From: a virus
Length of the DNA: 42,667 nt
IMG/VR virus record: IMGVR_UViG_3300050202_000021
Location: 1-42,667 of that record
Reading direction: 5' to 3' (one strand)
Shown: positions 1,909-36,641 of the stretch, one piece after another
Layout of the letters: each line of letters opens with the position of its first letter
How positions within the stretch are numbered: the stretch's first letter is position 1
The notes under the pieces: generated by a model
Seen by the model: only the letters and a program-made list of their open reading frames with translations
Told to the model about the DNA's origin: nothing
Databases searched by the model: none
Position numbers and translations under genes: made by a program

Positions 1909-2625
1909 TTAGCCGGCGAATTCAATCCCGGCCTTGGCTTCGACAGCCTTTGCGAACGCGTCGCGCTTTTCGTCGGGAATGTTCCGGCTGTGCGGAACCT
2001 GCCCCTCGGGGACGTATTCGGCGATCAGCGCCTTGATCGGCGCGGGATCACCGAGCTTGACCGCCGCCTGATTGCAGATCGCGCCCAAATCGGCATCGGT
2101 CCACTTGCGCGCCGGGATCGAAGCCGCAGCCGCCGCGTCGGTGCCGTTGGCCTTGTCAGCCGCCGCACGGAACGCCGCGAATTCGTCTTCGTCTTCAGTC
2201 GAAGTAGCAGCCGCGACCAATGCAGAGGCGGAAGGTGCAGAACCCGCGCCATCGCTCGGCGTGCCAGTGGCTCCATTTCCCTCCGCTTTCGGGAACCCCG
2301 GCTTCGGATCGGGACGGCTCACGCCGACCTTCATACGCCAGAGACCATCTTTCGTCATGCCGCGCGTCGAAGCATGAAGCTCTGCCGACCAAGGCCAGCC
2401 GGCCGCGTCGATCGTGCCGTCGTCGGCAGGGATTTCGGTCACGCCCTGCGTGCTTTCAGCTTCGACAGGCACGAGATTTGCCGGCGGTGCGGTGTTCTCG
2501 TGTCCGTTGGTGCGCGGTGCAGCGGTGGCGACGGCCGCAGTGGATACACCACCGAGAAGCGCGCAGACGGCAACGAACATGCTGCGCGGAATTGGCATAT
2601 GGATAAAATCTTCGTTCACTTTCAT
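1909..2625 (-). CDS. Hypothetical protein with N-terminal hydrophobic segment and GWPWSAELH..GLWRMKVG motif
   Basis: 238-aa ORF with an ATGA overlap to the helicase stop. It has a hydrophobic stretch SMFVAVCALLGGVSTAAVATAA and a 38-aa motif shared with 25775..26194. Confidence 0.7.
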   Translation of the reverse strand: MKVNEDFIHMPIPRSMFVAVCALLGGVSTAAVATAAPRTNGHENTAPPANLVPVEAESTQGVTEIPADDGTIDAAGWPWSAELHASTRGMTKDGLWRMKVGVSRPDPKPGFPKAEGNGATGTPSDGAGSAPSASALVAAATSTEDEDEFAAFRAAADKANGTDAAAAASIPARKWTDADLGAICNQAAVKLGDPAPIKALIAEYVPEGQVPHSRNIPDEKRDAFAKAVEAKAGIEFAG

Positions 2626-5129
2626 TCTCCGTGTTCGGCGTCTAGCACGCGGTGGATTACGTTCATTTTTTCGAGCGCTCTAACTAGAATTTTCTCCGAT
2701 ATGGAGCCGGGCGCTACGAAAATCTCTGCATTGACTAAATTCTCTTGCCCGATCCGATCGAGCCTTGCCACAGCTTGTTCGTTTTGTGCTGGCACCCAGT
2801 CGGGCTCTGCGAGGTAGCAACGCGAACAAACTTTTTGTAAACCGTCCAAGCCGGTTCCTGCCGACTGAATATTTCCGATGAATACCCTCTTGTGCGCTAA
2901 CGCAATAAAATCGTCAACCGCCTGTTGGCGCGCATTTGCCGATTTTCTCCCGTCAACGCGAACCGTGCCAAATCGCGACAAGCCATTTTCGAAAAGCGTC
3001 AGCACGTCGATATGCCAGCCGAAAATGACTAATTTTTCTTCCGATCCTTCCAAGAAATCTATGGCGTAATCGATAATCTGCGGTGCGAGCGCCAGCCCCA
3101 TAAGCCGCCGCGCTTCGGCGATATGGCCTAGGATTTCAAAATCTTTCGGCGTCTGAATTTTTTCAACCGACAAGCCTAACATGCCTTCGACGTCGAGTGC
3201 GTCCTTGACCGTTCCGTTTTCTTCACAGGTAACGACTGAATAGCGCGGCGGTTTCATCCAGCGCAAAACATCTTTCTTTTCGTGCCGTGCCATGATGTTG
3301 ACGCGCAGCCGGTTCTGAAGCTCGCTTTCCAGGCTCGTGCTTTCGAGCTTGAAGCGCTTGCCTTCGATCGTCTTCATATCCGCCTGTTTGTTGTAACGGT
3401 CCTTGAATTGCTGTTCGCCCAAAAAATCGATCGCTTCATGGTCGAAGTGGCGAAAAAGCACGTAACAATTATGGGCAATCACAGGACCGTCTGCGCTCAA
3501 TATCGTGAACCGGCGTCTAGGCCCGGCATTTGCAATGTCGTAAACAGGCTCGGAGCATTTCGATTTCTTCCAAAGCGATATCCAACCGCCCCTGTAAATC
3601 CGCGACAATTCGCCGATTGCCCATATTTTCTTTTCGGGTGATAAATCGCAAATTTCCCGGCTCATAGCCGCGATTGTTGTCGGTGCGATCCAATTGTAAA
3701 CCCGAAATATCGTGGCCTGACAAAGAAACAAGATACGCCAACCAAGCCGGACGGTTTTCGAGCCATTCAGGCCAAACGTAGATACCCCGCCCACCATAAG
3801 ATTTCCACGCATTGTTTTTGGGATTGGTGCAGCGATCCCGGACGGATTGCATAATACCGAGCAAGCGTTGACGCAATTTAAGGTCGGGACAAATTTCGTG
3901 ATATTTTGAATTGGCTTTGATCGAGCCATCTTTTGCACCGCACGATCGACACCGCGTAACAGTGCCTTGCCGCAGTTTCTGAAGCGTAGTGCGGGTGAAG
4001 CCGCCGCACTGGCAATCACATTCGACAACCTTAGGGCCGCTCGGATGCCGGGTATTGCCACGCACGGTAAGATTTCCGAACCGCTCGCCAACACTTGCTG
4101 CCACAAAACCGTATTTAGGCGCGCCGCGTCGGCTGACGCCCATGTAGATTTGGCCCGGAAGCGGTGTGTTGGAGTTACTGAAATTTGTCCGATGCTCACC
4201 GTCTGTGCGCATCCTTGATACAAAAGGCCGCGATGCCCTACCCATTCAACCCCATCCCACAGTAAGTCAGTTTTCTTGACCCGCACGATAGGCACCCATC
4301 CGCGCTGCGTCAGCACTTGCGTTGAACCGGCCAGACACTCGCTCGGACGGTTCAAAAGCAACGTCCCTGTCAACGCTATTTTGCGCTTACAATAGTTTGC
4401 GATCGCAGGCATTTTGATATCGCCGTGCTGGTATTCGCCCCGGTTGTTTCCGAGCACGGCGCGCGTCGTCAGCGCGTCGATATTCTTCATTTTGTGTGCT
4501 TCGTCGCAAATCAGCACGTCCCATTTAATTTTGGAAATCGCTTTGATGATCGCCGGATTGCGGGCAGCGTCATAGCTTAAAACCTGATAATTTGCCGTGG
4601 GGTGAATTCCGTCTTTGACCTTCAACATCACAGCAATTTTGCAATTCGGTATGGTGCTCCATTCGCGGATACGCTCACCCCATTGGATACGCACCGATGC
4701 CGGCACGATCACCAGGACGCGCTGCGCTTCGACTTCGTTGCAAAACGCGATCGACGTGGGAGTCTTTCCCAAACCCGGCTGATCGCCGTTGATCCCGCCG
4801 CCGCGCGCCAGCAAATAATCAAGCGTGGCCTTCTGGTAATCCCAAAGCTCCAACCCCGGCGGCAGCTTGCGCGTGCCGATCCCGTCGAGCGCCCGCGACA
4901 AATCGATTTCCCGGCGATAGGCGGCAAGCTCGGGGCAGTCCCCTAGATCAGCGAGTGCGTAAGCATTCGGGCTGAACAACACCGCCTTTTCGCGGCTCGA
5001 TGCCGACGTGCTGAACACGAGACCGCGATAGGCCATGAGCTCGGCGACCTCGCCTTTGCGGGCGGCAGGCACCTCCAGGACGTAATGGCCGTTATTTGCG
5101 GAAACTTTCATATCATCTAATCCGTGCAC
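2622..5129 (-). CDS. SNF2-family helicase, intein-containing precursor
   Basis: 835-aa ORF. Motifs: GDQPGLGKT (motif I), LICDEAHKMKN (II), LTGTLLLNRPSE (III, interrupted), QSAGTGLDGLQ and QNEQAVARLDRIGQ (V-VI). ATG at 5111 is an alternative start. Confidence 0.9.
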   Translation of the reverse strand: MHGLDDMKVSANNGHYVLEVPAARKGEVAELMAYRGLVFSTSASSREKAVLFSPNAYALADLGDCPELAAYRREIDLSRALDGIGTRKLPPGLELWDYQKATLDYLLARGGGINGDQPGLGKTPTSIAFCNEVEAQRVLVIVPASVRIQWGERIREWSTIPNCKIAVMLKVKDGIHPTANYQVLSYDAARNPAIIKAISKIKWDVLICDEAHKMKNIDALTTRAVLGNNRGEYQHGDIKMPAIANYCKRKIALTGTLLLNRPSECLAGSTQVLTQRGWVPIVRVKKTDLLWDGVEWVGHRGLLYQGCAQTVSIGQISVTPTHRFRAKSTWASADAARLNTVLWQQVLASGSEILPCVAIPGIRAALRLSNVIASAAASPALRFRNCGKALLRGVDRAVQKMARSKPIQNITKFVPTLNCVNACSVLCNPSGIAAPIPKTMRGNLMVGGVSTFGLNGSKTVRLGWRILFLCQATIFRVYNWIAPTTIAAMSREICDLSPEKKIWAIGELSRIYRGGWISLWKKSKCSEPVYDIANAGPRRRFTILSADGPVIAHNCYVLFRHFDHEAIDFLGEQQFKDRYNKQADMKTIEGKRFKLESTSLESELQNRLRVNIMARHEKKDVLRWMKPPRYSVVTCEENGTVKDALDVEGMLGLSVEKIQTPKDFEILGHIAEARRLMGLALAPQIIDYAIDFLEGSEEKLVIFGWHIDVLTLFENGLSRFGTVRVDGRKSANARQQAVDDFIALAHKRVFIGNIQSAGTGLDGLQKVCSRCYLAEPDWVPAQNEQAVARLDRIGQENLVNAEIFVAPGSISEKILVRALEKMNVIHRVLDAEHGE
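3468..4337 (-). mobile_element. Intein (290 codons) inserted in SNF2 motif III
   Basis: In-frame insert between ..NRPSE and CYVLFRHF. It begins CLAGSTQVL (block A), has VTPTHRF (block B) and ends EPVYDIANAGPRRRF..GPVIAHN followed by +1 Cys (blocks F/G). Confidence 0.8.
3517..4245 (-). CDS. HNH-type homing endonuclease ORF nested in the intein, in a different frame
   Basis: 242-codon ORF on the same strand, offset by one nt from the helicase frame. Motifs: GERFGNLTV, CDCQCGG..CRSCG, WKSYGGRGIYVWPEW, LDRTDNNRGYEPGNLRFITRKENMGNRR. It is a paralogue of 17260..17784. Possible starts are 4245 or ATG 4143. Confidence 0.7.
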   Translation of the reverse strand: MGRASRPFVSRMRTDGEHRTNFSNSNTPLPGQIYMGVSRRGAPKYGFVAASVGERFGNLTVRGNTRHPSGPKVVECDCQCGGFTRTTLQKLRQGTVTRCRSCGAKDGSIKANSKYHEICPDLKLRQRLLGIMQSVRDRCTNPKNNAWKSYGGRGIYVWPEWLENRPAWLAYLVSLSGHDISGLQLDRTDNNRGYEPGNLRFITRKENMGNRRIVADLQGRLDIALEEIEMLRACLRHCKCRA

Positions 5130-6894: not shown

Positions 6895-8765
6895 AAGTCA
6901 TATTCCTGCGTCGGGATTTCCCAATTGTTGCGATCATGCAACCAAGCCAATTCGCCACTTTTCATAAGCTGTTGACGCACGACACTCGCGTCGATTCCTA
7001 GCCGTCCTGAAATTTCCTGCGCCAGCGTAGCAGTCGAAGCCTTGCCACCCATGCCTTCCAAAGTTTTCACGACCTCTTTAACGCTTGCCCACTCATAGCG
7101 CGATTTTCCCGGTCCCTGTATTTCTGCGGGCACGGTTTCCGCACGCGCAAGAATGATCGAACCGCCGAATTCCTTGACTTGAAAATAGCTGATTTCATCC
7201 GAGACGTCTGCGTCTTTTTGTTTCCTTACGCGAAGCTCTGTCCCCCCTTGACGCAATTTTGTCGAAATCACCGCGTCCATATTCGCATAAAATGCGCTCG
7301 ATCCGCGCGCGCCCTTGTTCTGATCCTTGCCGGTGTGATGGATAGCGAGCACAAAACATTCGTAATAGCGCGCAAGCTGCTCCATGAAATTCGTTATCAT
7401 GCTTGCATCTTTGGCGGAATTTTCGTCCATCCCGGTTAGCAGGCGCGTCATTGTGTCGATCACGATCAGCGCAGGCTTGGCCTTCAATAGTGTCAAATCC
7501 TCTTTGACGTGCTCCCAGGCTTGCGTATCGGTGAAGAAAGGCACGCGATCCTTTATGAAAAATCGGTGATCGTTTCGAAATTCGATCCCCTGCCATTCCA
7601 TCCACGCGGGCCAACGCTTTTTGCCGGTCGCAACCGGCCCTTCGCCTGCCATGAAAAGCACATCGTTTTTAACCGGCGGTGCGCCCCATTGACCGGGAAC
7701 GCCAAACGCAAGCGATAGTGCCATGTCGAGTGCAATAAAGGATTTGAATGATCCGCTCTCCCCGTAAATCATGCCCGTGCCGGTGCTCGGGATCATATTA
7801 GGGATCAACCATGCGGGATCACGCACGTTGTCGGCATAATCGTGGAGCGCTTGCACGCGGTCACGGTCGCGGGGCTCGGGTTCGGGTGGCTCAAATTCCT
7901 GCCCGACAAATGCGGCGAACGCGGTTTCGTTTTCCAGAAAACCTTTGACGCCGCCAGTATCCTCTCCGTAATTTGCGGCGTTGCGAATGAGACCTTCTAA
8001 TTCCCATTCATCCCATGGCGGCTGACAAGCGGCGTTCCAGTGCTCCCACATAAGATCAAAGCACATGCCCGGCGATATGGCTTTGTCCAGAATCGAAGCC
8101 GCCACCTGAAAGGCGAGATTATTGCCGCCGCGCCCTTGCACTGACACGCGTCCCGACTGCACATAGCCTTTGAGCAAATCGACTGCCCACGAAATATTGC
8201 GGGGCTTGTCGGCATCGGGGTTTTTCACAAGCCCTAAAGTATCGGTCTTTTTCCGCTCAGGCACGATGCCGATAATCGCGGCTGGTAACGGTTCGATCGT
8301 GCCCCCCGGCAAAGCCTCATAGCTGCCCTTATCGGTTTTCGATCCAGGCAAAAGCACATAGCCGCCCGAAATTATCTTACCGTCGCGCTTGATCCCGCCG
8401 CGCGTGTCGATCCCGTCCGCAATGCGGCTGGCGGTGCTCGGGCCTTCCCCCTTGAAATAGACGTGTAGACCACCCCTAGGCGTGCGGACCTGATAGGCGC
8501 GGTCAACCGCTGCCCTTATGTCTGCGTCGCGCGCTAGGAGCTTTGCCCACCAATCAAGCCCGGCCGGGTCAACGTCGATCACGAAAAGCCCGCTAAGGCC
8601 CGTCGCTACTGCCCAATTGAATTCAGGGTTAACGCGCTGCCATTGCGCGATTTGGGCGGGATCGTCGCTCGCTTCATGCCAGCCGTTCGGCGTGGCAGGG
8701 AGCTTGCCGCCCGGCACCACCGGAAAGACCTTGCATCCCTGTAATTGATCCGGTAAACTTTGCAT
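6891..8765 (-). CDS. Bifunctional primase-polymerase (PrimPol) fused to RepA/DnaB-like AAA helicase
   Basis: 624 aa. N-terminal VFPVVPGGKLP..GLFVIDVD..GGLHVYFKG..IDTRGG..GGYVLLPGS. C-terminal Walker A GESGSFKS and Walker B LIVIDTMT. Confidence 0.9.
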   Translation of the reverse strand: MQSLPDQLQGCKVFPVVPGGKLPATPNGWHEASDDPAQIAQWQRVNPEFNWAVATGLSGLFVIDVDPAGLDWWAKLLARDADIRAAVDRAYQVRTPRGGLHVYFKGEGPSTASRIADGIDTRGGIKRDGKIISGGYVLLPGSKTDKGSYEALPGGTIEPLPAAIIGIVPERKKTDTLGLVKNPDADKPRNISWAVDLLKGYVQSGRVSVQGRGGNNLAFQVAASILDKAISPGMCFDLMWEHWNAACQPPWDEWELEGLIRNAANYGEDTGGVKGFLENETAFAAFVGQEFEPPEPEPRDRDRVQALHDYADNVRDPAWLIPNMIPSTGTGMIYGESGSFKSFIALDMALSLAFGVPGQWGAPPVKNDVLFMAGEGPVATGKKRWPAWMEWQGIEFRNDHRFFIKDRVPFFTDTQAWEHVKEDLTLLKAKPALIVIDTMTRLLTGMDENSAKDASMITNFMEQLARYYECFVLAIHHTGKDQNKGARGSSAFYANMDAVISTKLRQGGTELRVRKQKDADVSDEISYFQVKEFGGSIILARAETVPAEIQGPGKSRYEWASVKEVVKTLEGMGGKASTATLAQEISGRLGIDASVVRQQLMKSGELAWLHDRNNWEIPTQEYDL

Positions 8766-17259: not shown

Positions 17260-17784
17260 GTGCGGCGTTGGAAAAATTCTTCGGCTGCGACAAAAACCAC
17301 CTATCATTCATGGGCGGCAATGAAGCGGCGATGCCAAAATCCGGCGGACAAGGATTTTGCAAACTATGGCGGGCGCGGAATTACGGTTTGTGAGCGCTGG
17401 CGCGACGATTACGACGCTTTTTATAGCGATATGGGGCCGCGCCCTGCCGGAATGACTTTGGAGCGTATCGATGGCGACGGAAATTACGATCCTTTTAATT
17501 GTGCATGGGCAACCCGCATCGAGCAAGCGAATAATAGGCGGATCAACCGCCGCAGCGGAAACGAAACAGCTTCGCAAATAGCGCGACGTGTAGGCCGAAC
17601 ACGCCAATCGATCCTGTATAGGTTAAATAACGGATTACCGGTAGATTCATCTGCTAGGTTTCAAAAAATAGAAGCGGAGCACGGCACGGTTAGCAGGTAT
17701 TCAAGCGCGAAACATAAGTGTAGGTGTCAAAGCTGCACGGAAGCGTGGCGCGTTTATAATCAAGCAAAAAGGAATGCAAGGTAA
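17260..17784 (+). CDS. HNH-type homing endonuclease (free-standing)
   Basis: 174 aa. [27 protein letters not shown]...[28 protein letters not shown]. Same family as 3517..4245. Confidence 0.75.
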
Positions 17785-18128
17785 TGGACCTGCAAAAAAT
17801 TGCACTGAATTATGGAATGTCGATCGACGAGGTGCGCGAGCGCTGGTTGACGCTGCGCGTGGCGTTGTGGAAATCGGATTTTAAGCGTTTCTGCAAAGAG
17901 GCAATCAGGATTAGAACGAAGGAAGGCGACCTAGCGCCGCTCGAATTGAACGACGCGCAGGATATTTTGCACGCTGCTGCTGAAGAACAATTAGCCGAAG
18001 AAAAATGGGTGCGGCTGGCGGGGCTCAAAGGGCGGCGTCAAGGTTTCAGCACCATGGTAGCGGCGCGCGGTTATTGGCGTGCAACACTTTGGGACCGCCA
18101 AATATATATATTTTGTCGCACGAAATGA
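17784..18128 (+). CDS. terL: Terminase large subunit, N-terminal fragment (Walker A region)
   Basis: 114-aa ORF. ..LAGLKGRRQGFSTMVAARGYW... It stops 7 codons after an A3(AT)5 tract. Confidence 0.7.
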   Translation: MDLQKIALNYGMSIDEVRERWLTLRVALWKSDFKRFCKEAIRIRTKEGDLAPLELNDAQDILHAAAEEQLAEEKWVRLAGLKGRRQGFSTMVAARGYWRATLWDRQIYIFCRTK

Positions 18129-19561
18129 CTGCATCGACCAAATTGTTCGATATGGTCGATTTGATGCAGCAGAAGCATCCTTTTCCGCCCAAGGTCGGTG
18201 CCGACAACGCAAAGGAATTGGAATTTCCCAAGCGTGGATCGACATATACCGTGGCGACCGCCGGGCAAAAGGCTGGTGGACGCGGCGGCGGCATTTCGTT
18301 TTTCCACGGATCAGAGGTTGCTTGGTGGACCAACGCCGCCGATCACTTTTCAGCGTCGGTGCAGGCGGTGGACGAGGTGCGCGGGGTTTGGGGCGTCCTG
18401 TGGACCGAACCAGCAAACCCGCTGCCTTTTGAAAAAAGCAAAGGCGCGATCGAGGGGTGGGTGAAGCCGCCGTCCGAAATTTGGCTTGAAACGACGTCTG
18501 CGGGGCCAGTAGGCGAATTCCACAACCGTTATAAAGACGCGATGAAGAAAATCGGGCGGTATCGCGCAGCATTCGTGCCGTGGACGGTGCAGGCCGAATA
18601 TGTCGATAATTCCGGCGATTTTGTCGCGTCGCAGGAGTCCGACGAAGAAGGCGAGCTTTCCGAAGCTGAATATCAAGAGCTTTACAAGCTCACCGACGCG
18701 CAAATGCTCTGGCGACGTTCGAAAATTCACGAGCTAGGCACGCTCGGGAAATTTCGGCAGGAATACCCTATCGATGTAGTCGAAGCGTTTGCAGCGGCGG
18801 ATATCGAGGGGGTTTTCATCAAGCCCGCCTATGTGCTGAAGGCGCGCAAGCGCGTGCTCGATATTCCCGACGCTCCGCTGATTATCGGCGTCGATCCGGC
18901 TGGCAGCGGCGGCGATCGATTTGCGGTCGCCTTTCGCCGGGGCGACAGCATTTTCAAAGTGGTGCACCGTAATAAACTGGAACAGGCTGAAGCGGTAGCG
19001 TGGCTTTCGCAGATTATCGACGAGTGGGAGCCGAACCGCATGTGCATTGATCGCGGCTCGATGGGCCAGGCGATCATCGCGACATTGCGCAGCCTGAACA
19101 AAAAATATTCCGACGTCGTAAAAGGTATCGATTTCGGCGGCACTTCCAAAGCCAAGCTCGCTAATCCCAAGCGCGCAGGTCCATGGAATATTCGCGCTGA
19201 AATTTATGGCAAGCTGCTCGATTTTCTTATCGAGGGCGGCTCGATCCCCGATGACGACGACCTCGCCAGCGATATGAGCGGACCGAAGATAAAATATCGT
19301 GCGAACAATGATTGGCTGCTCGAAAGCAAAACCGACATGAAGGCGCGAGGGTTGCGGTCAAGTGATCTTTCCGACGCCTGCGCATTAACCTTTGCAGTCA
19401 CCGAATTTTTTGATACGTGGTCGAAGCCCAAGCCTGCAACAGGGTTCGGCACCGGGGCTCCTGCCATGATCGGACACAACGGGGGGCCGGCGCTGATCGA
19501 CCATACGGATTTCGGGCAGCATTTTGACGTCGGCGGCGGCGCGAATTCATGGATGGGCTAG
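18125..19561 (+). CDS. terL: Terminase large subunit, remainder (ATPase Walker B plus nuclease domain), in the -1 frame
   Basis: The frame is open from 18005. ..NIYILSHEMTASTKLF..ISFFHGSEVAWW..IIGVDPAGSGGDRFA.. The first ATG at 18125 forms an ATGA with the stop of the N-terminal fragment. Confidence 0.8.
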   Translation: MTASTKLFDMVDLMQQKHPFPPKVGADNAKELEFPKRGSTYTVATAGQKAGGRGGGISFFHGSEVAWWTNAADHFSASVQAVDEVRGVWGVLWTEPANPLPFEKSKGAIEGWVKPPSEIWLETTSAGPVGEFHNRYKDAMKKIGRYRAAFVPWTVQAEYVDNSGDFVASQESDEEGELSEAEYQELYKLTDAQMLWRRSKIHELGTLGKFRQEYPIDVVEAFAAADIEGVFIKPAYVLKARKRVLDIPDAPLIIGVDPAGSGGDRFAVAFRRGDSIFKVVHRNKLEQAEAVAWLSQIIDEWEPNRMCIDRGSMGQAIIATLRSLNKKYSDVVKGIDFGGTSKAKLANPKRAGPWNIRAEIYGKLLDFLIEGGSIPDDDDLASDMSGPKIKYRANNDWLLESKTDMKARGLRSSDLSDACALTFAVTEFFDTWSKPKPATGFGTGAPAMIGHNGGPALIDHTDFGQHFDVGGGANSWMG

Positions 19562-19572
19562 GGAGATAGACA

Positions 19573-21777
19573 ATGGCAGGTTTGAGAGACGCAATCGCCG
19601 CCGACGTCGGCCCGGCACCGACTAAAGTCACCCGCACGCCTACGGGGTTCGGCAGTATCGACGAATTTCTGAATGACATGCGCCAGAAATACGAATGGGG
19701 CTATTCGTTCAACGAGCACAATATTATTGCCGGCAAGGAAGACGCAAAATTTGCGGTGGGCAATCAATGGGACCCTGTGGTCAAGCAGCGACGCGAGGAT
19801 GCGAAAAAACCTGCACTGACATTTAACCGGCTGATCGCCTTTGTTGCGCAGATCGTCGGTAATCGTCTTATGAATGAGACGGAAATTCGGGTGCACCCCG
19901 ACAAGGCCGGGACCAAGGAAATTGCGCTGGTGCGCGAAGGTATTATCCGCAACATTTTCAAAAACGGTGGCGCGGATTTTGCCCGCGACGAAGCGCACAA
20001 ATACCAGGTTGTCGGCGGGCAAGGTGCATATTGCCTTGCGATGGAATACACGTCGGACGACGTTTTCGAGCAAGAAATCAAGCTGCAAGCCGTCACCGAT
20101 CCTTATTCGGCCGTGTTCGATCCGCTCGGGATCGAGCCGTCCGGCAAGGATTGCCAGTGGGCTTTCGTCGGCGACGACATTCCGCAGCAGGAATTCAAAA
20201 ACCGCTACCCGTGGGCGGCTGAAACGTCCTTCATGGATGAACGTAACTGGAACCAATCGGGCTTTTGGCTTCAGGACGATACCGTGCGGATCGTCAGTTT
20301 CTGGCGCATGGTCACGGAAGGTTCGCGGACGCTTGCGCTCTATCGCGATGGCACGGTGCACGACGTCACCGAAATGGAAGAATACGAGTATCTTCAGCTT
20401 GTCGAGGTGCGCTCGGACGGCTCGCCCTACGTGCGCGACGTGCCCAAGCGCTTTGCCAGGCTCTACATTTGCTCGGGCAACGCAATTCTTGAAGGCCCGT
20501 ATGATTATCCGGTTTCGTCGCTGCCGGTTTATCGCGTGCCCGGATGGGAATTGAACGATGGCGAGCGCGTGCATCGGTGGGGACTGATCCGCTTTTTGAA
20601 AGACCCCCAACGCTTGCACAATTACTGGCGTTCGACTGTTGCAGAACAGCTTATCGCCGCACCGCGCAATAAGTGGCTGACGACGCCGGAGTCCGTCAAA
20701 GGCCATGAAGTAAAATGGCGGCGCGCGCCGACGAGCGACGATCCGTTTTTGTATTACAATGATGGCGAGCAACCGCCGATCCATGTTCCGCCGCCCGGTA
20801 TTGACGCGGCGCTGGTCAACGAAGCAGGACTCGCGACGCAGGATTTGAAGGATATCTCGAATATCCACGAAGCTGCGCTCGGGATGCCGTCGAACGAAGT
20901 TTCGAAGGTCGCGATCCAGCAGCGCCAGGTAACGAGCGACGTGGGCACGTTCATTTATACCGATCGGTTGCGGATCGCAGACACGCGGTGCGCCGGCAAT
21001 ATCAACGAGTTAATCCCCTATATTTACGACACGCAGCGCACCGTTACCGTGATTGGTCGCGACGACAAGGCGACGCTCGCGATAATCAACGATCCGACAA
21101 ATCCGAATTCCGACGTCACGATGGGCAAATATGCCGTGTCTGTCAGCGTCGGTCCTGCGTCCGAAACCAAGCGCGGGCTCGCGGCCGAACAAATGATGGC
21201 GTTCGTGAATGCCGCGCCGCAAATTGCGGGCAATGTCATGGACCTCGTGGCCGAAGCGCAAGATTGGCCGAAATCGACCGAATTTGCGCGCCGCTTCAAG
21301 ATGCTGTTGCCGCCCGGCATGATCCCGGCCGACGAAATGACGCCGGAAATGCAGCAAGCGCAGCAGCAGAACCAGCAGATGCAGGAAATGCAGCAGCAGG
21401 TTGCGCAGGCGCAGGCGCAGGCCAAAATCGCGCTCGATCAGGCCAAGGCGTCCGATGCGGAAGCGCGCGGCAAATTGGCGTTGGCGCAAGCCTACAAGGC
21501 GGTTTCCGACGCACAGGCGCGGATGATGGACGTCGAAGCAAAGGGCGAAGAAAGGGATTTCAACCAAGTCCTGAAAACGCTCGATCAGCACAACGATATG
21601 CTGAAAGACGATCGCGAATTTGACCTGAACCAGAGCAAGCAGGAGCACGATCAGGAAAGCGCAGTCGTCAATTATTTGACGAACGCGGATCGTGACGAGC
21701 GCGATTTCTCGCTGCGGTCTCAACAGAGCGCAGCGGCACAAGAACCAACCACTGAAGAAAATGGAGAACAAGAATGA
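19573..21777 (+). CDS. Portal protein (P22 gp1-like, with long Q-rich C-terminal helix)
   Basis: 734 aa. AKFAVGNQWDPVVKQRREDAKKPALTFNRL.. The C-terminal MQQAQQQNQQMQEMQQQVAQAQAQAK coiled segment resembles the P22 portal barrel. It lies directly after terL. Confidence 0.8.
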   Translation: MAGLRDAIAADVGPAPTKVTRTPTGFGSIDEFLNDMRQKYEWGYSFNEHNIIAGKEDAKFAVGNQWDPVVKQRREDAKKPALTFNRLIAFVAQIVGNRLMNETEIRVHPDKAGTKEIALVREGIIRNIFKNGGADFARDEAHKYQVVGGQGAYCLAMEYTSDDVFEQEIKLQAVTDPYSAVFDPLGIEPSGKDCQWAFVGDDIPQQEFKNRYPWAAETSFMDERNWNQSGFWLQDDTVRIVSFWRMVTEGSRTLALYRDGTVHDVTEMEEYEYLQLVEVRSDGSPYVRDVPKRFARLYICSGNAILEGPYDYPVSSLPVYRVPGWELNDGERVHRWGLIRFLKDPQRLHNYWRSTVAEQLIAAPRNKWLTTPESVKGHEVKWRRAPTSDDPFLYYNDGEQPPIHVPPPGIDAALVNEAGLATQDLKDISNIHEAALGMPSNEVSKVAIQQRQVTSDVGTFIYTDRLRIADTRCAGNINELIPYIYDTQRTVTVIGRDDKATLAIINDPTNPNSDVTMGKYAVSVSVGPASETKRGLAAEQMMAFVNAAPQIAGNVMDLVAEAQDWPKSTEFARRFKMLLPPGMIPADEMTPEMQQAQQQNQQMQEMQQQVAQAQAQAKIALDQAKASDAEARGKLALAQAYKAVSDAQARMMDVEAKGEERDFNQVLKTLDQHNDMLKDDREFDLNQSKQEHDQESAVVNYLTNADRDERDFSLRSQQSAAAQEPTTEENGEQE

Positions 21778-22775
21778 GCGGCACGGATCAGGGCGCGGAC
21801 GAATTCGCTGAATTCGAAAAGGCTGGCGAAGTCGAGGTAGGCACCGACGCGATCGAAAGCAACGAAGCTGACGACGCGGAAAAACCCGCCAAACCAGCCA
21901 AGCCGAAAGACGCCAAAAAGCCCAAGGAACCGGCTGAACCTGCGTCCGACGATGACGAGGAAGACGCGGAAGCTGATGACGCCGACGATGGCGAGGAAGA
22001 TGAGGAAGAAGAAAAACCTAAAGGCAAAACCAAGCAAAAACCCTCGGAACGCATTCGCGAATTGAGTGCGCGTCTGCGGGCTGAAGAACGCTTGCGTCGT
22101 GCCGCTGATGAGCGCTTGACAAACCTTGAAAAAAATCTCTTGCCAGCAAATCGCACCGATGCTAATTCGAGCGGCGACAGGGGAAATACGCCAGCGCCCG
22201 ATCCTTCGGACGAAGACAAATACCCCCTCGGGCACCTCGACGACCGTTACATCGAGGATAAGCTCGATTGGCTCGCTACTCAAAAAGCAGCCGAAAGAGC
22301 CGATGCGGTCCTGCAACGTCAGCAGGAAAGCGAGCAATTGGCGCAGGCTGAAAAAGCCCATGCCGAATTGCTCGAAAAGGTCGATGATCTTTCCACGCGC
22401 GGCTCCGAACAATACGACGATTTCCAGGAAGCCGTGGTGGAAGCAGGGATGCGGGGCGATTGGCGTCTCGATCAGCCGACCTTCGAAGCTGCGCACGAGG
22501 CTGAAAACGGATCGCAAATTCTCTACGAGCTTTCGCAGGACAAGAAGGAAGCGGCTCGCGTTGCCGGGCTCTCCCCATACAACCAGCTAAAGTTTGTCAT
22601 GGAGCGCGACGCCGAAATTTCTGCCAAGGGCAAAGCTCGCAAGATTCCGGGGGCTGGCGCACCGCCTGCTACGCAGACCAGGGGCGCTAATTCCCGAACC
22701 CGGATCAGTCCGACGACCGACAACCTTGACGATTTCGAAAAGGCTTGGGAAGCGGACGCTAAGGGCAAGCGTTAA
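21774..22775 (+). CDS. Scaffolding protein
   Basis: 333 aa, highly acidic and coiled-coil rich, located between the portal and coat genes. ATGA overlap. Confidence 0.7.
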   Translation: MSGTDQGADEFAEFEKAGEVEVGTDAIESNEADDAEKPAKPAKPKDAKKPKEPAEPASDDDEEDAEADDADDGEEDEEEEKPKGKTKQKPSERIRELSARLRAEERLRRAADERLTNLEKNLLPANRTDANSSGDRGNTPAPDPSDEDKYPLGHLDDRYIEDKLDWLATQKAAERADAVLQRQQESEQLAQAEKAHAELLEKVDDLSTRGSEQYDDFQEAVVEAGMRGDWRLDQPTFEAAHEAENGSQILYELSQDKKEAARVAGLSPYNQLKFVMERDAEISAKGKARKIPGAGAPPATQTRGANSRTRISPTTDNLDDFEKAWEADAKGKR

Positions 22776-33818: not shown

Positions 33819-36641
33819 ATGCCAACATACAGCATTCGGGCACCAAACGGTAAAACCTACCAAATCGACGGGCCGCAGGGCGCGACGGATGCACAGGTGC
33901 GCGCGCAGGTGCTGAAGCAATTTCCGGGTGCAGGCGGTGCGCCGCCACCGGCACCACCGAAACAGCCGGTGAAACCTGCGACGCCACCGGAAGGTATGGG
34001 AGCACGCAGGCTTCGCGATTTTGGCAAATTTGCCAACGCTACGCCGGAACAGGCGACTACGGCAATGGAATTTGCCGAAAATCGTTTCCGTGAAACGATG
34101 CGGACCAAGGGAATTCAGGGATCGACCCTCGACGCCGCTTTGCAGCGTTTCCGCAGCGATCCGGGATTTCAGGCGCTCGCAATGCGTGCGCAGGGCCGCA
34201 CTCCACAGCTTACCGAAGCCGGCCGGGCGCGGCTGACGGGTGTTCGCACGCCGCCGACCAAGCGCCAGCAAATCCGTGCTGCTGCCGAACAAGCCGCAGG
34301 CGCGCCGGGATCGAGCGGGGCGGGGGATTTCCTTACTGCGCTTAACGCCGGCGCACGTCGCTATATGTTCGGAATTCCTGAACGGCTCGCGGCGGCTGGC
34401 CTTTATGCCACACAAAAAGGCAATAACACCTATCAGGACGTTTTGCAGCTTGTGCGTGATAAAACCGACGTCGAAATGGAGCGCTCGACGGCTGGCACAC
34501 TGACGGGCGGCGTGATCGGATCGGTGGCGAGCGGACGCGCTGTCACGGGCGCGCTCGCACCGCTCGTCTCACGGGCGGCGGCATCGGCATCACCTCTGCT
34601 CGCGCGCGCCGGAAATTATCTTCAGACACTCGGGACATTCCAAAAAGGCCAAAAGTTTGCGAATGCGGCAAAACTGGCGGGAACCGGCGCGGCATTCGGC
34701 GCGGCGCAGGGTGCGGGCGACGGCAGCGGCGCGGGCAGAGGTGCAGCCTATGGCGCGGCCGGCGGCGTGCTGCTTGGCGGCGGTTTCAAGGCCGCACAGG
34801 TTATCACGCGCCCATTCCGGGATTTCTTGCGCCTGTCGAGTGCCAGCAAAATTTTAAGCCGACTCACGACCTCGACGACCGACGAAATTGCTGCCCGCGC
34901 CGCCGAATATCGGCAAGCCACCGGCGCAGAGCCCACGCTGTTCGAATTGCTCCCGCTGGTTGACCGCAACAAAATCTTGAAACAGGCGGTGGTTGGGCGC
35001 GATACCACAGTCGAGCAAGCGTCGAGGGCTATTCGCGAGCGTGCCGCAAATCTCGGGCCGGAAATGTCGCGCCGGGCGCAGACGATCTTGCAGCCGCAGC
35101 GCACTTTCGTCGAGCGCGGTATCCGGCGCGATTTGACGGCGGCGCGCGGCGGTGTAGTCGATCCAGCCGACGAAGCCGTTGCAGCGGCAGCTATCAAAAG
35201 CCCAACCGATATGTCGGCTTTGCGGGACGTCGAAGCGCGGCAGATTATGGCCCCGTTTGAGAATACGCGCGTCGTGGGAAATCTCGACGAGCTTTATCCG
35301 TCCGTGCCGGCACCAGGTGGGGCGGGCCGCATTGCCACCGATCCCGAAGTTTCGGCGGTTATCCGATCGGCAGCGGGAACGCTTCGGCAGCGCGCCGATG
35401 GCGCTGGCGTCACAGCAGGCGATATCACTGATATGATTTCGACATTGCGCAGCGATCTTTCACGCGGCGGTATCGAGGGGCGCACGGCCGAACGCGCGAT
35501 TAGTCATTTGCAACGCACATTGGACCAACAAGCACCCGACGCCGGGGCAGCAGCGCGTGCCATGACTGAAGCCTATGCGGCTCGATCGCGCATGGCTGAA
35601 GGAATGCAAGAGGGTGCGGCGACGCGGACGCGCGATAGCGTCCAGGTGGGCACCAGCCGCCGCGAAGCGCGTCGGGTGCGCAATGCCTATGATACGCCGG
35701 AAGGTGATGCAGGGCGTGTGCTCGGACAAGGAAATAAAATCCTTGGCGATCTTACGGGTTCGCCTGAAGAAGCCTTGCGGGCGACCGTAGGAATTTCGCG
35801 AAACAGTAATCGCGAACCGCTTAGGGCGAATTTGGGTGAGGATGCAGGCGATGCGATCCGTGCGGCCGCACGCGCACAGGATGAAAGCGCACAAGCCTTG
35901 GCGGCGGCATCGAAAACCGCGCAATCGGGTGGGCAGACTGCCGATGCAGAAACCCTTGTGTCGGCGTTGGCTGGCCTGCACCCGTCGTCGTTCATCACGA
36001 CAAAAGCCGGTGCCGTGCGCCAATTGCTCGACATGACCTATATTCCCGCCAACCGTGCGCGAACCATGGTCGATATGATTTTCTCGCAAGACCCTGCGAC
36101 CGTGGCGCGTGCGATCCGTGCGCTCGGAAACGAAAGCAACGGTGCAGCCGCTATGCGCGCGCTCACAGCGCTAGTAGGCCAGGGGGCGAGCGCTGGCACC
36201 ACCCCGCCGCCCGACGTCGATACCGGCGTTGCGGACGGTGGCGCTGATCCTGCGCTTGTGCCACCGCCTGAAGAAATTCCCGATCCGAATGCGGAAATCG
36301 ATCCACCTGTCGATCCGAATGTCGATCCGAACGCTGACCCCAACATCGATCCGAATTTGCCTTACGGGCACGCCGTCGTGTCGTCGATTTTCCCTGAAGC
36401 GGAAATTACCGAAGACGTGCGCGATCCCGACAGCGATTTGGGCCGGAAAAATCCCGGCAGCTATCATGTCAAATCACAAAACGGTGTGGACGTGCGCCCG
36501 ATCCCAGGCATGACGTTCGACGAATTTATCGCCCGGATCGAGGCGGAAGGCCATACGATTATCGAAGCCCGCGACGAAGTAAACAATCCGGTGAGTTACG
36601 CGACCGGGCCACACTGGCATGTCGTTATCGCGGATGCCTAG
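33819..36641 (+). CDS. Large internal virion / ejection protein with C-terminal LAS-type (M15-like) peptidoglycan peptidase
   Basis: 940 aa. The C-terminal SYHVKSQNGVDV...GPHWHV gives an H-x7-D ... H-x-H arrangement, preceded by DPN repeats. Confidence 0.6.
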   Translation: MPTYSIRAPNGKTYQIDGPQGATDAQVRAQVLKQFPGAGGAPPPAPPKQPVKPATPPEGMGARRLRDFGKFANATPEQATTAMEFAENRFRETMRTKGIQGSTLDAALQRFRSDPGFQALAMRAQGRTPQLTEAGRARLTGVRTPPTKRQQIRAAAEQAAGAPGSSGAGDFLTALNAGARRYMFGIPERLAAAGLYATQKGNNTYQDVLQLVRDKTDVEMERSTAGTLTGGVIGSVASGRAVTGALAPLVSRAAASASPLLARAGNYLQTLGTFQKGQKFANAAKLAGTGAAFGAAQGAGDGSGAGRGAAYGAAGGVLLGGGFKAAQVITRPFRDFLRLSSASKILSRLTTSTTDEIAARAAEYRQATGAEPTLFELLPLVDRNKILKQAVVGRDTTVEQASRAIRERAANLGPEMSRRAQTILQPQRTFVERGIRRDLTAARGGVVDPADEAVAAAAIKSPTDMSALRDVEARQIMAPFENTRVVGNLDELYPSVPAPGGAGRIATDPEVSAVIRSAAGTLRQRADGAGVTAGDITDMISTLRSDLSRGGIEGRTAERAISHLQRTLDQQAPDAGAAARAMTEAYAARSRMAEGMQEGAATRTRDSVQVGTSRREARRVRNAYDTPEGDAGRVLGQGNKILGDLTGSPEEALRATVGISRNSNREPLRANLGEDAGDAIRAAARAQDESAQALAAASKTAQSGGQTADAETLVSALAGLHPSSFITTKAGAVRQLLDMTYIPANRARTMVDMIFSQDPATVARAIRALGNESNGAAAMRALTALVGQGASAGTTPPPDVDTGVADGGADPALVPPPEEIPDPNAEIDPPVDPNVDPNADPNIDPNLPYGHAVVSSIFPEAEITEDVRDPDSDLGRKNPGSYHVKSQNGVDVRPIPGMTFDEFIARIEAEGHTIIEARDEVNNPVSYATGPHWHVVIADA

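Follow-up and report, generated by a model that had tools for sequence, protein, structure and literature searches.

Results

An intein and a second gene inside a viral helicase gene

The virus record IMGVR_UViG_3300050202_000021 of IMG/VR was analysed over positions 1 to 42,667, and this whole stretch of 42,667 nucleotides (nt) is called the window here. The subject of this study is a gene for an SNF2-family helicase that is interrupted by an intein, together with a second open reading frame (ORF) that lies within the intein on the same strand in another frame. Our data indicate that this dual coding is almost certainly genuine and selected, and it recurs in about 90 related sequences. The locus contains the following features.

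2622..5129, minus strand: SNF2-family helicase precursor ORF, 835 amino acids (aa) from a GTG start, a single frame running through the intein
4338..5129, minus strand: N-extein, terminating ...ALTGTLLLNRPSE in the region of helicase motif III
3468..4337, minus strand: intein of 290 aa (helicase frame) that opens with Cys1 (CLAGSTQVL...) and closes with ...VIAHN, followed by Cys in the extein
4107..4337, minus strand: N-terminal splicing region, intein residues 1-77, with Cys1, the WDGVEWV motif and block B (TPTH)
3591..4106, minus strand: helicase-frame linker, intein residues 78-249, 172 codons, stop-free, poorly conserved and of low model confidence
3468..3590, minus strand: C-terminal splicing region (EPVYDI block, terminal HN), covering intein residues 250-290
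2622..3467, minus strand: C-extein, beginning CYVLFRHFDHE
3517..4245, minus strand: overlapping ORF, 242 aa, ATG at 4245..4243 and TAG at 3519..3517, PHROG 374/3377
3607..4095, minus strand: conserved folded core of the ORF product, residues 51-213
3529..3636, minus strand: long coiled-coil-like helix at the C-terminus of the ORF product (residues 204-239), overlapping the C-terminal splicing region with its 3' part
4250..4258, minus strand: Shine-Dalgarno (SD)-like stretch GGGATGGGG in the intein's W-D-G codons, lying 4-12 nt upstream of the ORF ATG

The helicase ORF matched the Pfam families SNF2-rel_dom (1.3e-13), ResIII and Helicase_C, and PHROG 62 'DNA helicase' (3e-69). The database gene call for the helicase, P0121, starts 6 codons downstream of the GTG and gives a protein of 829 aa. 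A megablast search of GenBank phages with the helicase gene found no match. More than 100 close helicases of 538-542 aa, 80-92% identical, are uninterrupted alleles that join exactly at ...NRPSE|CYVLF...

Cys1 of the intein is invariant in an alignment of 31 diverse relatives, as are T55 and H58 of block B (TPTH, intein residues 55-58) and the C-terminal His-Asn. The intein in the window ends ...VIAHN|C, and the following extein residue is Cys or Ser across these relatives. Boundaries were set in 78 of 84 related loci, and all begin with C1 and end in HN|C or HN|S. Among solved inteins, the splicing-block profile matched NEQ068 (E=6.3e-5), the Spl DnaX mini-intein (E=1.8e-4, over almost the full length) and, more weakly, the DnaB and RecA inteins. 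No Pfam intein model rose above threshold for the insert (Vint, E=0.087), and a single-sequence PDB search with a mini-intein construct gave no match. The insert is a class-1 intein by its sequence motifs, and splicing is predicted. A preliminary description of the sequence had seen no recognisable endonuclease in the centre of the intein in the helicase frame. This was confirmed, as no Pfam or NCBIfam nuclease or intein family matched the insert in that frame.

The same description had placed a 242-codon ORF of another frame within the intein, with the helicase frame remaining open, and its coordinates and offset were borne out. The ORF lies entirely within the 835-aa helicase ORF at an offset of +2 nt, that is, in the -1 frame. 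A TGA at 4248..4246 shuts the ORF frame directly upstream of the ATG, and the ORF stop falls inside the C-terminal splicing region. The limits of the conserved core (4095..3607) are within a few codons of those of the splicing blocks, also as described. The ORF matched PHROG 374, 3377 and 2081, all annotated 'HNH endonuclease', with E=6.5e-34 to 2e-20. The proposed paralogy with a second gene of the window was supported by BLASTP (E=1e-12, 36% identity over 80 aa).

17260..17784, plus strand: free-standing paralogue, 174 aa, of the same protein family as the overlapping ORF

Same layout in related sequences

The same helicase intein was found in six further alleles from different samples (Logan SRR27946747, SRR29078116, SRR24198229 and SRR28285702; NCBI GCA_040384165.1; ENA ERZ19036836), in exactly the same frames. 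Their inteins are 286-290 aa in the helicase frame and their intact ORFs 242-258 aa. In all 7 helicase alleles with DNA the ORF is intact and its ATG lies at intein nt 92. The ORF core is 63-85% identical between these alleles (15-37% of core residues differ), so the six are independent sequences and not copies of one error.

The nearest GenBank phage matches of the ORF lie within intein-containing DNA polymerases, in the -1 frame of an open host frame. The hosts are EBPR siphovirus 2, Jersey-like Salmonella phages (e.g. Ent1), Dhillonvirus and Sodalis phage SO-1, and carriers of the layout include cultured Salmonella, Escherichia and Sodalis phages, some with finished genomes. A single-sequence locus search of IMG/VR gave one relative only, so that an alignment-based search was needed. 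The 80 loci from this family-alignment search and 4 earlier loci make up the set of 84. The stretch homologous to the ORF lies within an ORF of 600-1280 aa at +1 offset in all 84, and the remaining third frame is never open. The ORF is intact in 82 of them, at identities as low as 36%, and the layout is retained in relatives at 36-48% ORF identity. A Pfam scan of eight host ORFs identified seven family-A DNA polymerases and one SNF2 helicase (L058). Junction motifs put the intein in polymerase motif B in almost all of the 84 loci. A query fused in one frame had no end-to-end match among the 120 hits listed, and only its ORF part was covered. The comparison with relatives that the preliminary description had proposed found none with the HNH domain in frame among these hits.

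Some loci differ in detail. In two polymerase inteins from IMG/VR, L060 and L076, the ORF is interrupted (153 and 170 codons) and the polymerase frame is open; this is probably ORF decay within the family. The helicase gene of L058 (L058:1937-4474, IMGVR_UViG_3300050138_000151) is a second SNF2-type helicase with the same intein family, at the junction VLARNL|C...HN|CWDCIDFA. This different junction suggests more than one jump from polymerase to helicase. In the record of SO-1 (L003, NC_013600), the overlapping ORF is a separate coding sequence named 'HNH endonuclease, type I self-splicing intron', and this attribution to an intron is wrong. The record of Ent1 (L002, HE775250) describes an intein 'encoding splicing domains', with no endonuclease annotated. 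Both annotations missed the two-frame layout.

Selection on the two frames

Differences per site at codon positions 1/2/3 were counted in 27 independent, non-overlapping sequence pairs, with the following results.

N-terminal splicing-only part, helicase frame:.22 /.18 /.41
N-terminal overlap, helicase frame:.22 /.21 /.32
ORF core, ORF frame:.19 /.15 /.44
C-terminal overlap, helicase frame:.18 /.33 /.27
C-terminal splicing-only part, helicase frame:.19 /.09 /.48

Variation in the C-terminal overlap is highest at helicase position 2, and this site corresponds to position 3 of the ORF codons. The codon-position pattern therefore indicates that protein-level constraint acts first on the helicase frame, then on the ORF frame and finally on the helicase frame again. 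Among the seven helicase alleles, identity over the linker DNA is 69% in the ORF frame (range 63-85%) versus 39% in the helicase frame (31-54%), and it is 74-76% in the splicing blocks.

Even so, the helicase frame remains open across the core. None of the 65 unique sequences has a stop in this frame, against 2.8 expected from codon shuffles, whereas the third frame has 8.9 stops against 9.8 expected. For this core in the window alone, codon shuffling gave P=0.021 for a helicase frame open by chance. Free-standing members of the family, including the paralogue in the window, have 4-19 stops in the corresponding frame; the paralogue has 7 in its own +1 frame, unlike the copy embedded in the intein.

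Probable translation of the overlapping ORF

The ORF starts at one fixed site, over the 'xW' codons of the intein motif WDGxxWV (NNA TGG -> ATG G). At the homologous position, about 45 loci have ATG as the start codon, about 30 have GTG and about 7 have TTG, with a single case of CTG. Many loci have a stop 0-1 codon upstream of the start in the same frame, and therefore no longer ORF product is possible in those loci. The W-D-G codons (UGGGAYGG) pair with the anti-SD sequence at -7.0 kcal/mol, compared with -2.8 kcal/mol at random positions in the same genes. The SD-like stretch is consistent with initiation of the ORF but is no proof of it. Canonical -1 slippery heptamers (X XXY YYZ) were found in the overlap in 7 of 65 loci at scattered positions, and none in the window. 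Because these heptamers are rare and their position is not conserved, internal initiation is preferred over frameshifting.

Structure and family of the ORF product

An AlphaFold model of the ORF frame (38 sequences) has a mean predicted local distance difference test score (pLDDT) of 82.6, with the core residues 51-213 at 84-98. Residues 1-25 are below 50 and residues 26-50 at about 50-67; these first 50 residues overlap the N-terminal splicing block and are not conserved. The linker DNA read in the helicase frame scores 24-31. In the modelled core, a four-cysteine ribbon (C78, C80, C99, C102) belongs to a beta-rich part, the invariant YGGRGI...W segment lies in a helical part, and a beta-beta-alpha unit, LDRTDNNRGYEPGNLRFITRKEN, runs into the long C-terminal helix (204-239). 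The strands at 184-187 and 199-202 and the helix from 204 have pLDDT >90. Asp186-Arg187 (LDR) is invariant in the family, and the C-terminal helix scores as a bZIP-like coiled coil in 9 of 38 members.

Structural neighbours in BFVD are annotated variously as HNH endonuclease, AP2/ERF or DNA-binding protein, and a text search for family motifs (YGGRG etc.) gave noise only. The Pfam and NCBIfam searches found no match for the paralogue at 17260..17784. Some small free-standing phage proteins also consist of the minimal unit of about 95-130 aa. A 142-aa member (L095:907-1335) lies between the two halves of the lysin (amidase) gene in Staphylococcus phage KSAP7 (LC492751), and the record labels it 'putative AP2-domain transcriptional factor'. 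In related staphylococcal phages this lysin site holds I-KsaI, an 'HNH homing endonuclease' that an intron encodes (PMC5618024). The settings of its members, in an intein, in a split lysin gene (probably with an intron) and free-standing, tie the family to homing contexts.

Distribution of the intein among helicases

The intein was present in nine helicase alleles, which are interspersed with more than 100 that lack it. In 7 of the nine, the closest extein is that of an intein-less allele, at up to 92.8% identity. This patchy distribution would fit homing.

One relative, L088 (Logan SRR29078154 contig 18042), lacks the motif-III intein and has a different intein at helicase motif II, with the junctions LICDE|C...VSN|CHKMKN (helicase gene, L088:1501-4020). 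This motif II intein contains a 226-aa ORF on the same strand in the +1 frame (L088:2330-3010, plus strand), and the ORF has a DUF559/Vsr-like endonuclease domain (Pfam PF04480, E=1.8e-8, above the cut-off). It is a second, unrelated case of an out-of-frame endonuclease in an intein within the same helicase family, and it suggests that inteins hold further nuclease ORFs of this alternative-frame kind.

Other open frames of the window

Long same-strand alternative frames are common in this genome, as the preliminary description had cautioned. Six further nested same-strand open frames of at least 150 codons (156-272) are present in the window, which has 57% G+C.

19874-20554 and 20805-21623, plus strand: nested open frames inside the ORF 19570-21777
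680-1186 and 7195-7668, minus strand: other nested open frames
22120-22590 and 34463-34963, plus strand: other nested open frames

None of the six has a PHROG match, and for this reason they look like chance openings. The idea that the overlapping ORF is likewise a mere chance open frame was rejected, as this ORF has homologues and the six do not.

Directly downstream of the paralogue lie the overlapping ORFs 17784..18128 and 18005..19561, which we take to be putative terminase genes. HNH proteins are commonly located upstream of terminase genes in cos-type phages.

Discussion

The locus can be understood as a two-part selfish element in which two reading frames share one stretch of DNA. Frame 0 encodes a contiguous class-1 intein, with a 172-residue filler joining the N- and C-terminal splicing blocks. 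The only constraint on this filler may be that it is stop-free and does not hinder splicing. The precursor would be translated through the filler, and self-excision of the intein would restore the SNF2 helicase. Frame -1 would be a separate gene whose ATG is built into the WDGxxWV motif and is preceded by the G-rich W-D-G codons; it crosses the filler and stops in the C-terminal splicing block. Its predicted product is a folded endonuclease-like DNA-binding protein of about 190 residues with an unstructured 50-residue leader. In co-infection this protein may recognise and cut intein-less helicase alleles (...NRPSE|CYVLF...), and repair after the cut would copy the intein and the ORF together. 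The intein family is mainly found in motif B of phage family-A DNA polymerases, and the lineage in the window might have moved from there into the SNF2 helicase. We consider the whole mechanism, with splicing, internal initiation and homing by the ORF protein, to be likely. The nuclease step is its weakest part.

Several points weigh against this mechanism. Splicing, translation of the ORF and DNA cleavage are predicted from sequence and models. For the intein in the helicase frame, AlphaFold gave a model with a pLDDT of 34, of too low a quality overall to reveal a Hint fold because the alignment has only 9 sequences. A DGxxWV-like motif is also present in NEQ068, an intein without this ORF. 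As the SD-like stretch consists of the W-D-G codons themselves, conservation of WDG could be structural, and the loci are not independent samples for conservation of this stretch. The label 'HNH core' in the preliminary description was not confirmed. The 38-sequence family alignment has no invariant histidine, and the same is true of the free-standing members. By eye, the invariant R187 presumably occupies the place where the catalytic His of an HNH_3-type motif is expected. Neither the ORF, nor 38 relatives, nor 4 free-standing members matched any Pfam or NCBIfam family. Foldseek of the ORF model against PDB gave no hit at E<=0.001, only weak ribosomal-protein hits, and the ORF-family profile matched only a zinc-ribbon stretch in PDB (E=0.37). 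The name 'HNH' thus comes from PHROG and GenBank annotation only, and 'HNH endonuclease' may reflect habit in annotation and not a tested assignment. Intein divergence among the helicase alleles (about 25%) is similar to extein divergence, and the patchiness could also come from old vertical inheritance with repeated precise loss.

The preliminary description had offered two readings of the locus, a genuine overlapping arrangement and a normal in-frame endonuclease intein in which the change of frame is caused by two compensating 1-nt artefact indels. The homopolymer runs invoked for the latter exist, T4 at 4105..4108 and G4 at 3589..3592, and fusing the frames there yields a plausible-looking protein. 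However, the six other helicase alleles and all 84 more distant loci, finished cultured-phage genomes among them, have the same frames, conservation in the ORF frame extends past the proposed second indel with the C-terminal helix reaching the ORF stop, and the fused reconstruction was covered end to end by none of the 120 listed hits. These comparisons refute the artefact, whose probability is negligible. The genuine overlap is supported by the 84 loci and by selection on both frames, but its description as a possible intermediate is not, since the layout is kept at 36-48% ORF identity. From these comparisons the layout is taken to be stable rather than transitional. Decay of an ancestral in-frame endonuclease, frameshifted and dead, with the helicase frame open because the helicase is needed, would explain why the ORF family lacks a catalytic His, and the interrupted ORFs of L060 and L076 (2 of 84) show that decay happens. 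It is very hard to reconcile with an ORF that is intact in 82 loci despite divergence to 36% identity, with substitutions concentrated at its third codon positions (.44 vs.19,.15), with the conserved position of its start codon and with the confident structure model in its frame; no in-frame ancestor appeared among the 120 hits for the fused query either. We regard decay as highly improbable.

The same overlap could also be read by programmed -1 frameshifting from the helicase frame, which would produce a fusion of N-extein, N-intein and endonuclease without internal initiation. The ORF is in the -1 frame in every member, and this is the frame of the commonest programmed shift. Against this, canonical heptamers are scattered among just 7 of 65 loci and absent from the window, and a frameshift product would not need the fixed start codon, which often stands right after an in-frame stop. 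There is little chance that frameshifting accounts for the ORF. It is also conceivable that the overlapping gene is real and selected but that its product is not a homing nuclease, and acts instead as a nuclease-recruiting DNA-binding factor, a regulator of phage genes or a splicing helper. The family has no conserved His, with Arg at the position expected for the general base, and no HNH family or structure match was found in Pfam, NCBIfam or PDB; its relatives are variously annotated as AP2/ERF or DNA-binding proteins, and the product combines a 4-Cys ribbon with a C-terminal helix that is bZIP-like. The family nevertheless recurs in classic homing contexts, namely an intein, a split lysin gene and free-standing positions between genes, and the distribution of the intein is patchy and mobile-like. 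The predicted beta-beta-alpha unit with the invariant Asp186 and Asn210 would be compatible with a metal site. A product without a role as homing nuclease is unlikely on balance, and homing by the ORF protein remains our preferred reading.

Taken in its widest form, the proposal is that of a large, old and undescribed two-frame intein family, in which the ORF is always in the -1 frame, its start and ribosome binding site are placed in an intein motif, and the layout is a stable end state, with a protein that may be a novel kind of homing nuclease or else a homing factor without catalysis. We put this forward tentatively, at somewhat less than an even chance. If it is true, the presence of members in easily grown Salmonella and E. 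coli phages makes the model 'splicing domain first, endonuclease invades later' directly testable. On our main reading, the splicing and homing functions of an intein can remain divided between two polypeptides over long periods although one stretch of DNA encodes both, and this lasting separation supports an origin of inteins by free-standing endonuclease genes invading splicing elements. The locus is also a natural case of dense dual coding, with about 730 nt used in two frames and with measurable footprints of selection, one frame constrained as a protein and the other only against stops. Surveys that read only the host frame will label such elements 'mini-inteins' or 'degraded', and gene callers either overlook the ORF or, as happened in Sodalis phage SO-1, wrongly assign it to an intron. 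Members are carried by Dhillonvirus and by cultured Jersey-like Salmonella phages, so that splicing, internal initiation and homing are testable at the bench.

A literature search found no paper describing the present two-frame intein family and none mentioning the polymerase-intein ORF of Jersey-like phages. The layout is not the first of its kind, given a precedent in a 2025 preprint, and the present protein family appears to be undescribed. In inteins of actinobacteriophages, an endonuclease VII-like ORF was reported on the same strand in 'frame 3', within DNA polymerase (III alpha), minor capsid protein, the large subunit of the terminase, and thymidylate synthase; the authors called this architecture previously unreported, rare and possibly unstable, and mentioned no start codon (bioRxiv 10.1101/2025.01.02.630785). 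In that preprint, Vsr-like ORFs in full inteins were reported on the antisense strand only. The present case shares the same-strand position of the endonuclease ORF between the splicing blocks, its frame ('frame 3', which equals -1), a host frame that is open and without recognisable structure there, and the suggested origin, in which a free-standing endonuclease gene invaded an intein. It differs in that the present ORF has no match to Endonuclease_7 (IPR004211) or any other Pfam family (E<=0.1-1), and in that its exteins are motif B of family-A polymerases and SNF2 helicases rather than the four host types of the preprint. The hosts are phages of Proteobacteria and many metagenomes instead of actinobacteriophages. 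Unlike the rare type of the preprint, the present layout is found in 84 of 84 relatives, with the start codon within an intein motif.

In-frame HNH inteins were described in 1997. These and the dCTP deaminase intein of cyanophage CL 131 (PMC6293099) likewise carry an HNH-type, non-LAGLIDADG label and reside in a phage gene of nucleic acid metabolism. In the CL 131 type, the endonuclease domain is part of the intein polypeptide and matches Pfam HNH_3 (PMC6293099), whereas the present ORF encodes a separate product in another frame with no Pfam match. Fractured genes with split inteins (Dassa et al. 2009, PMC2677866) likewise have an endonuclease gene of the free-standing type inside the intein coding region, and the 3' end of this gene overlaps the C-terminal intein part by 6-69 bp, an overlap also seen for the present ORF. 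The host gene there is in two ORFs and depends on trans-splicing, whereas the present host gene is a single ORF in the window and in all relatives. The present intein stays contiguous because the host frame reads through the whole endonuclease gene. The 'hidden' HNH insertions of the ShiLan domain in phage methylases (Arsenault et al. 2025, PMC11855218) are also out-of-frame ORFs in an open host frame. They have no splicing domain and are therefore retained in the host protein, whereas the present ORF is flanked by intein blocks. In the DnaX intein of Synechocystis, an antisense LAGLIDADG endonuclease (Gorbalenya 1998, as cited in bioRxiv 10.1101/2025.01.02.630785) is likewise outside the intein polypeptide, but its gene is on the opposite strand and its endonuclease family is not that of the present ORF.

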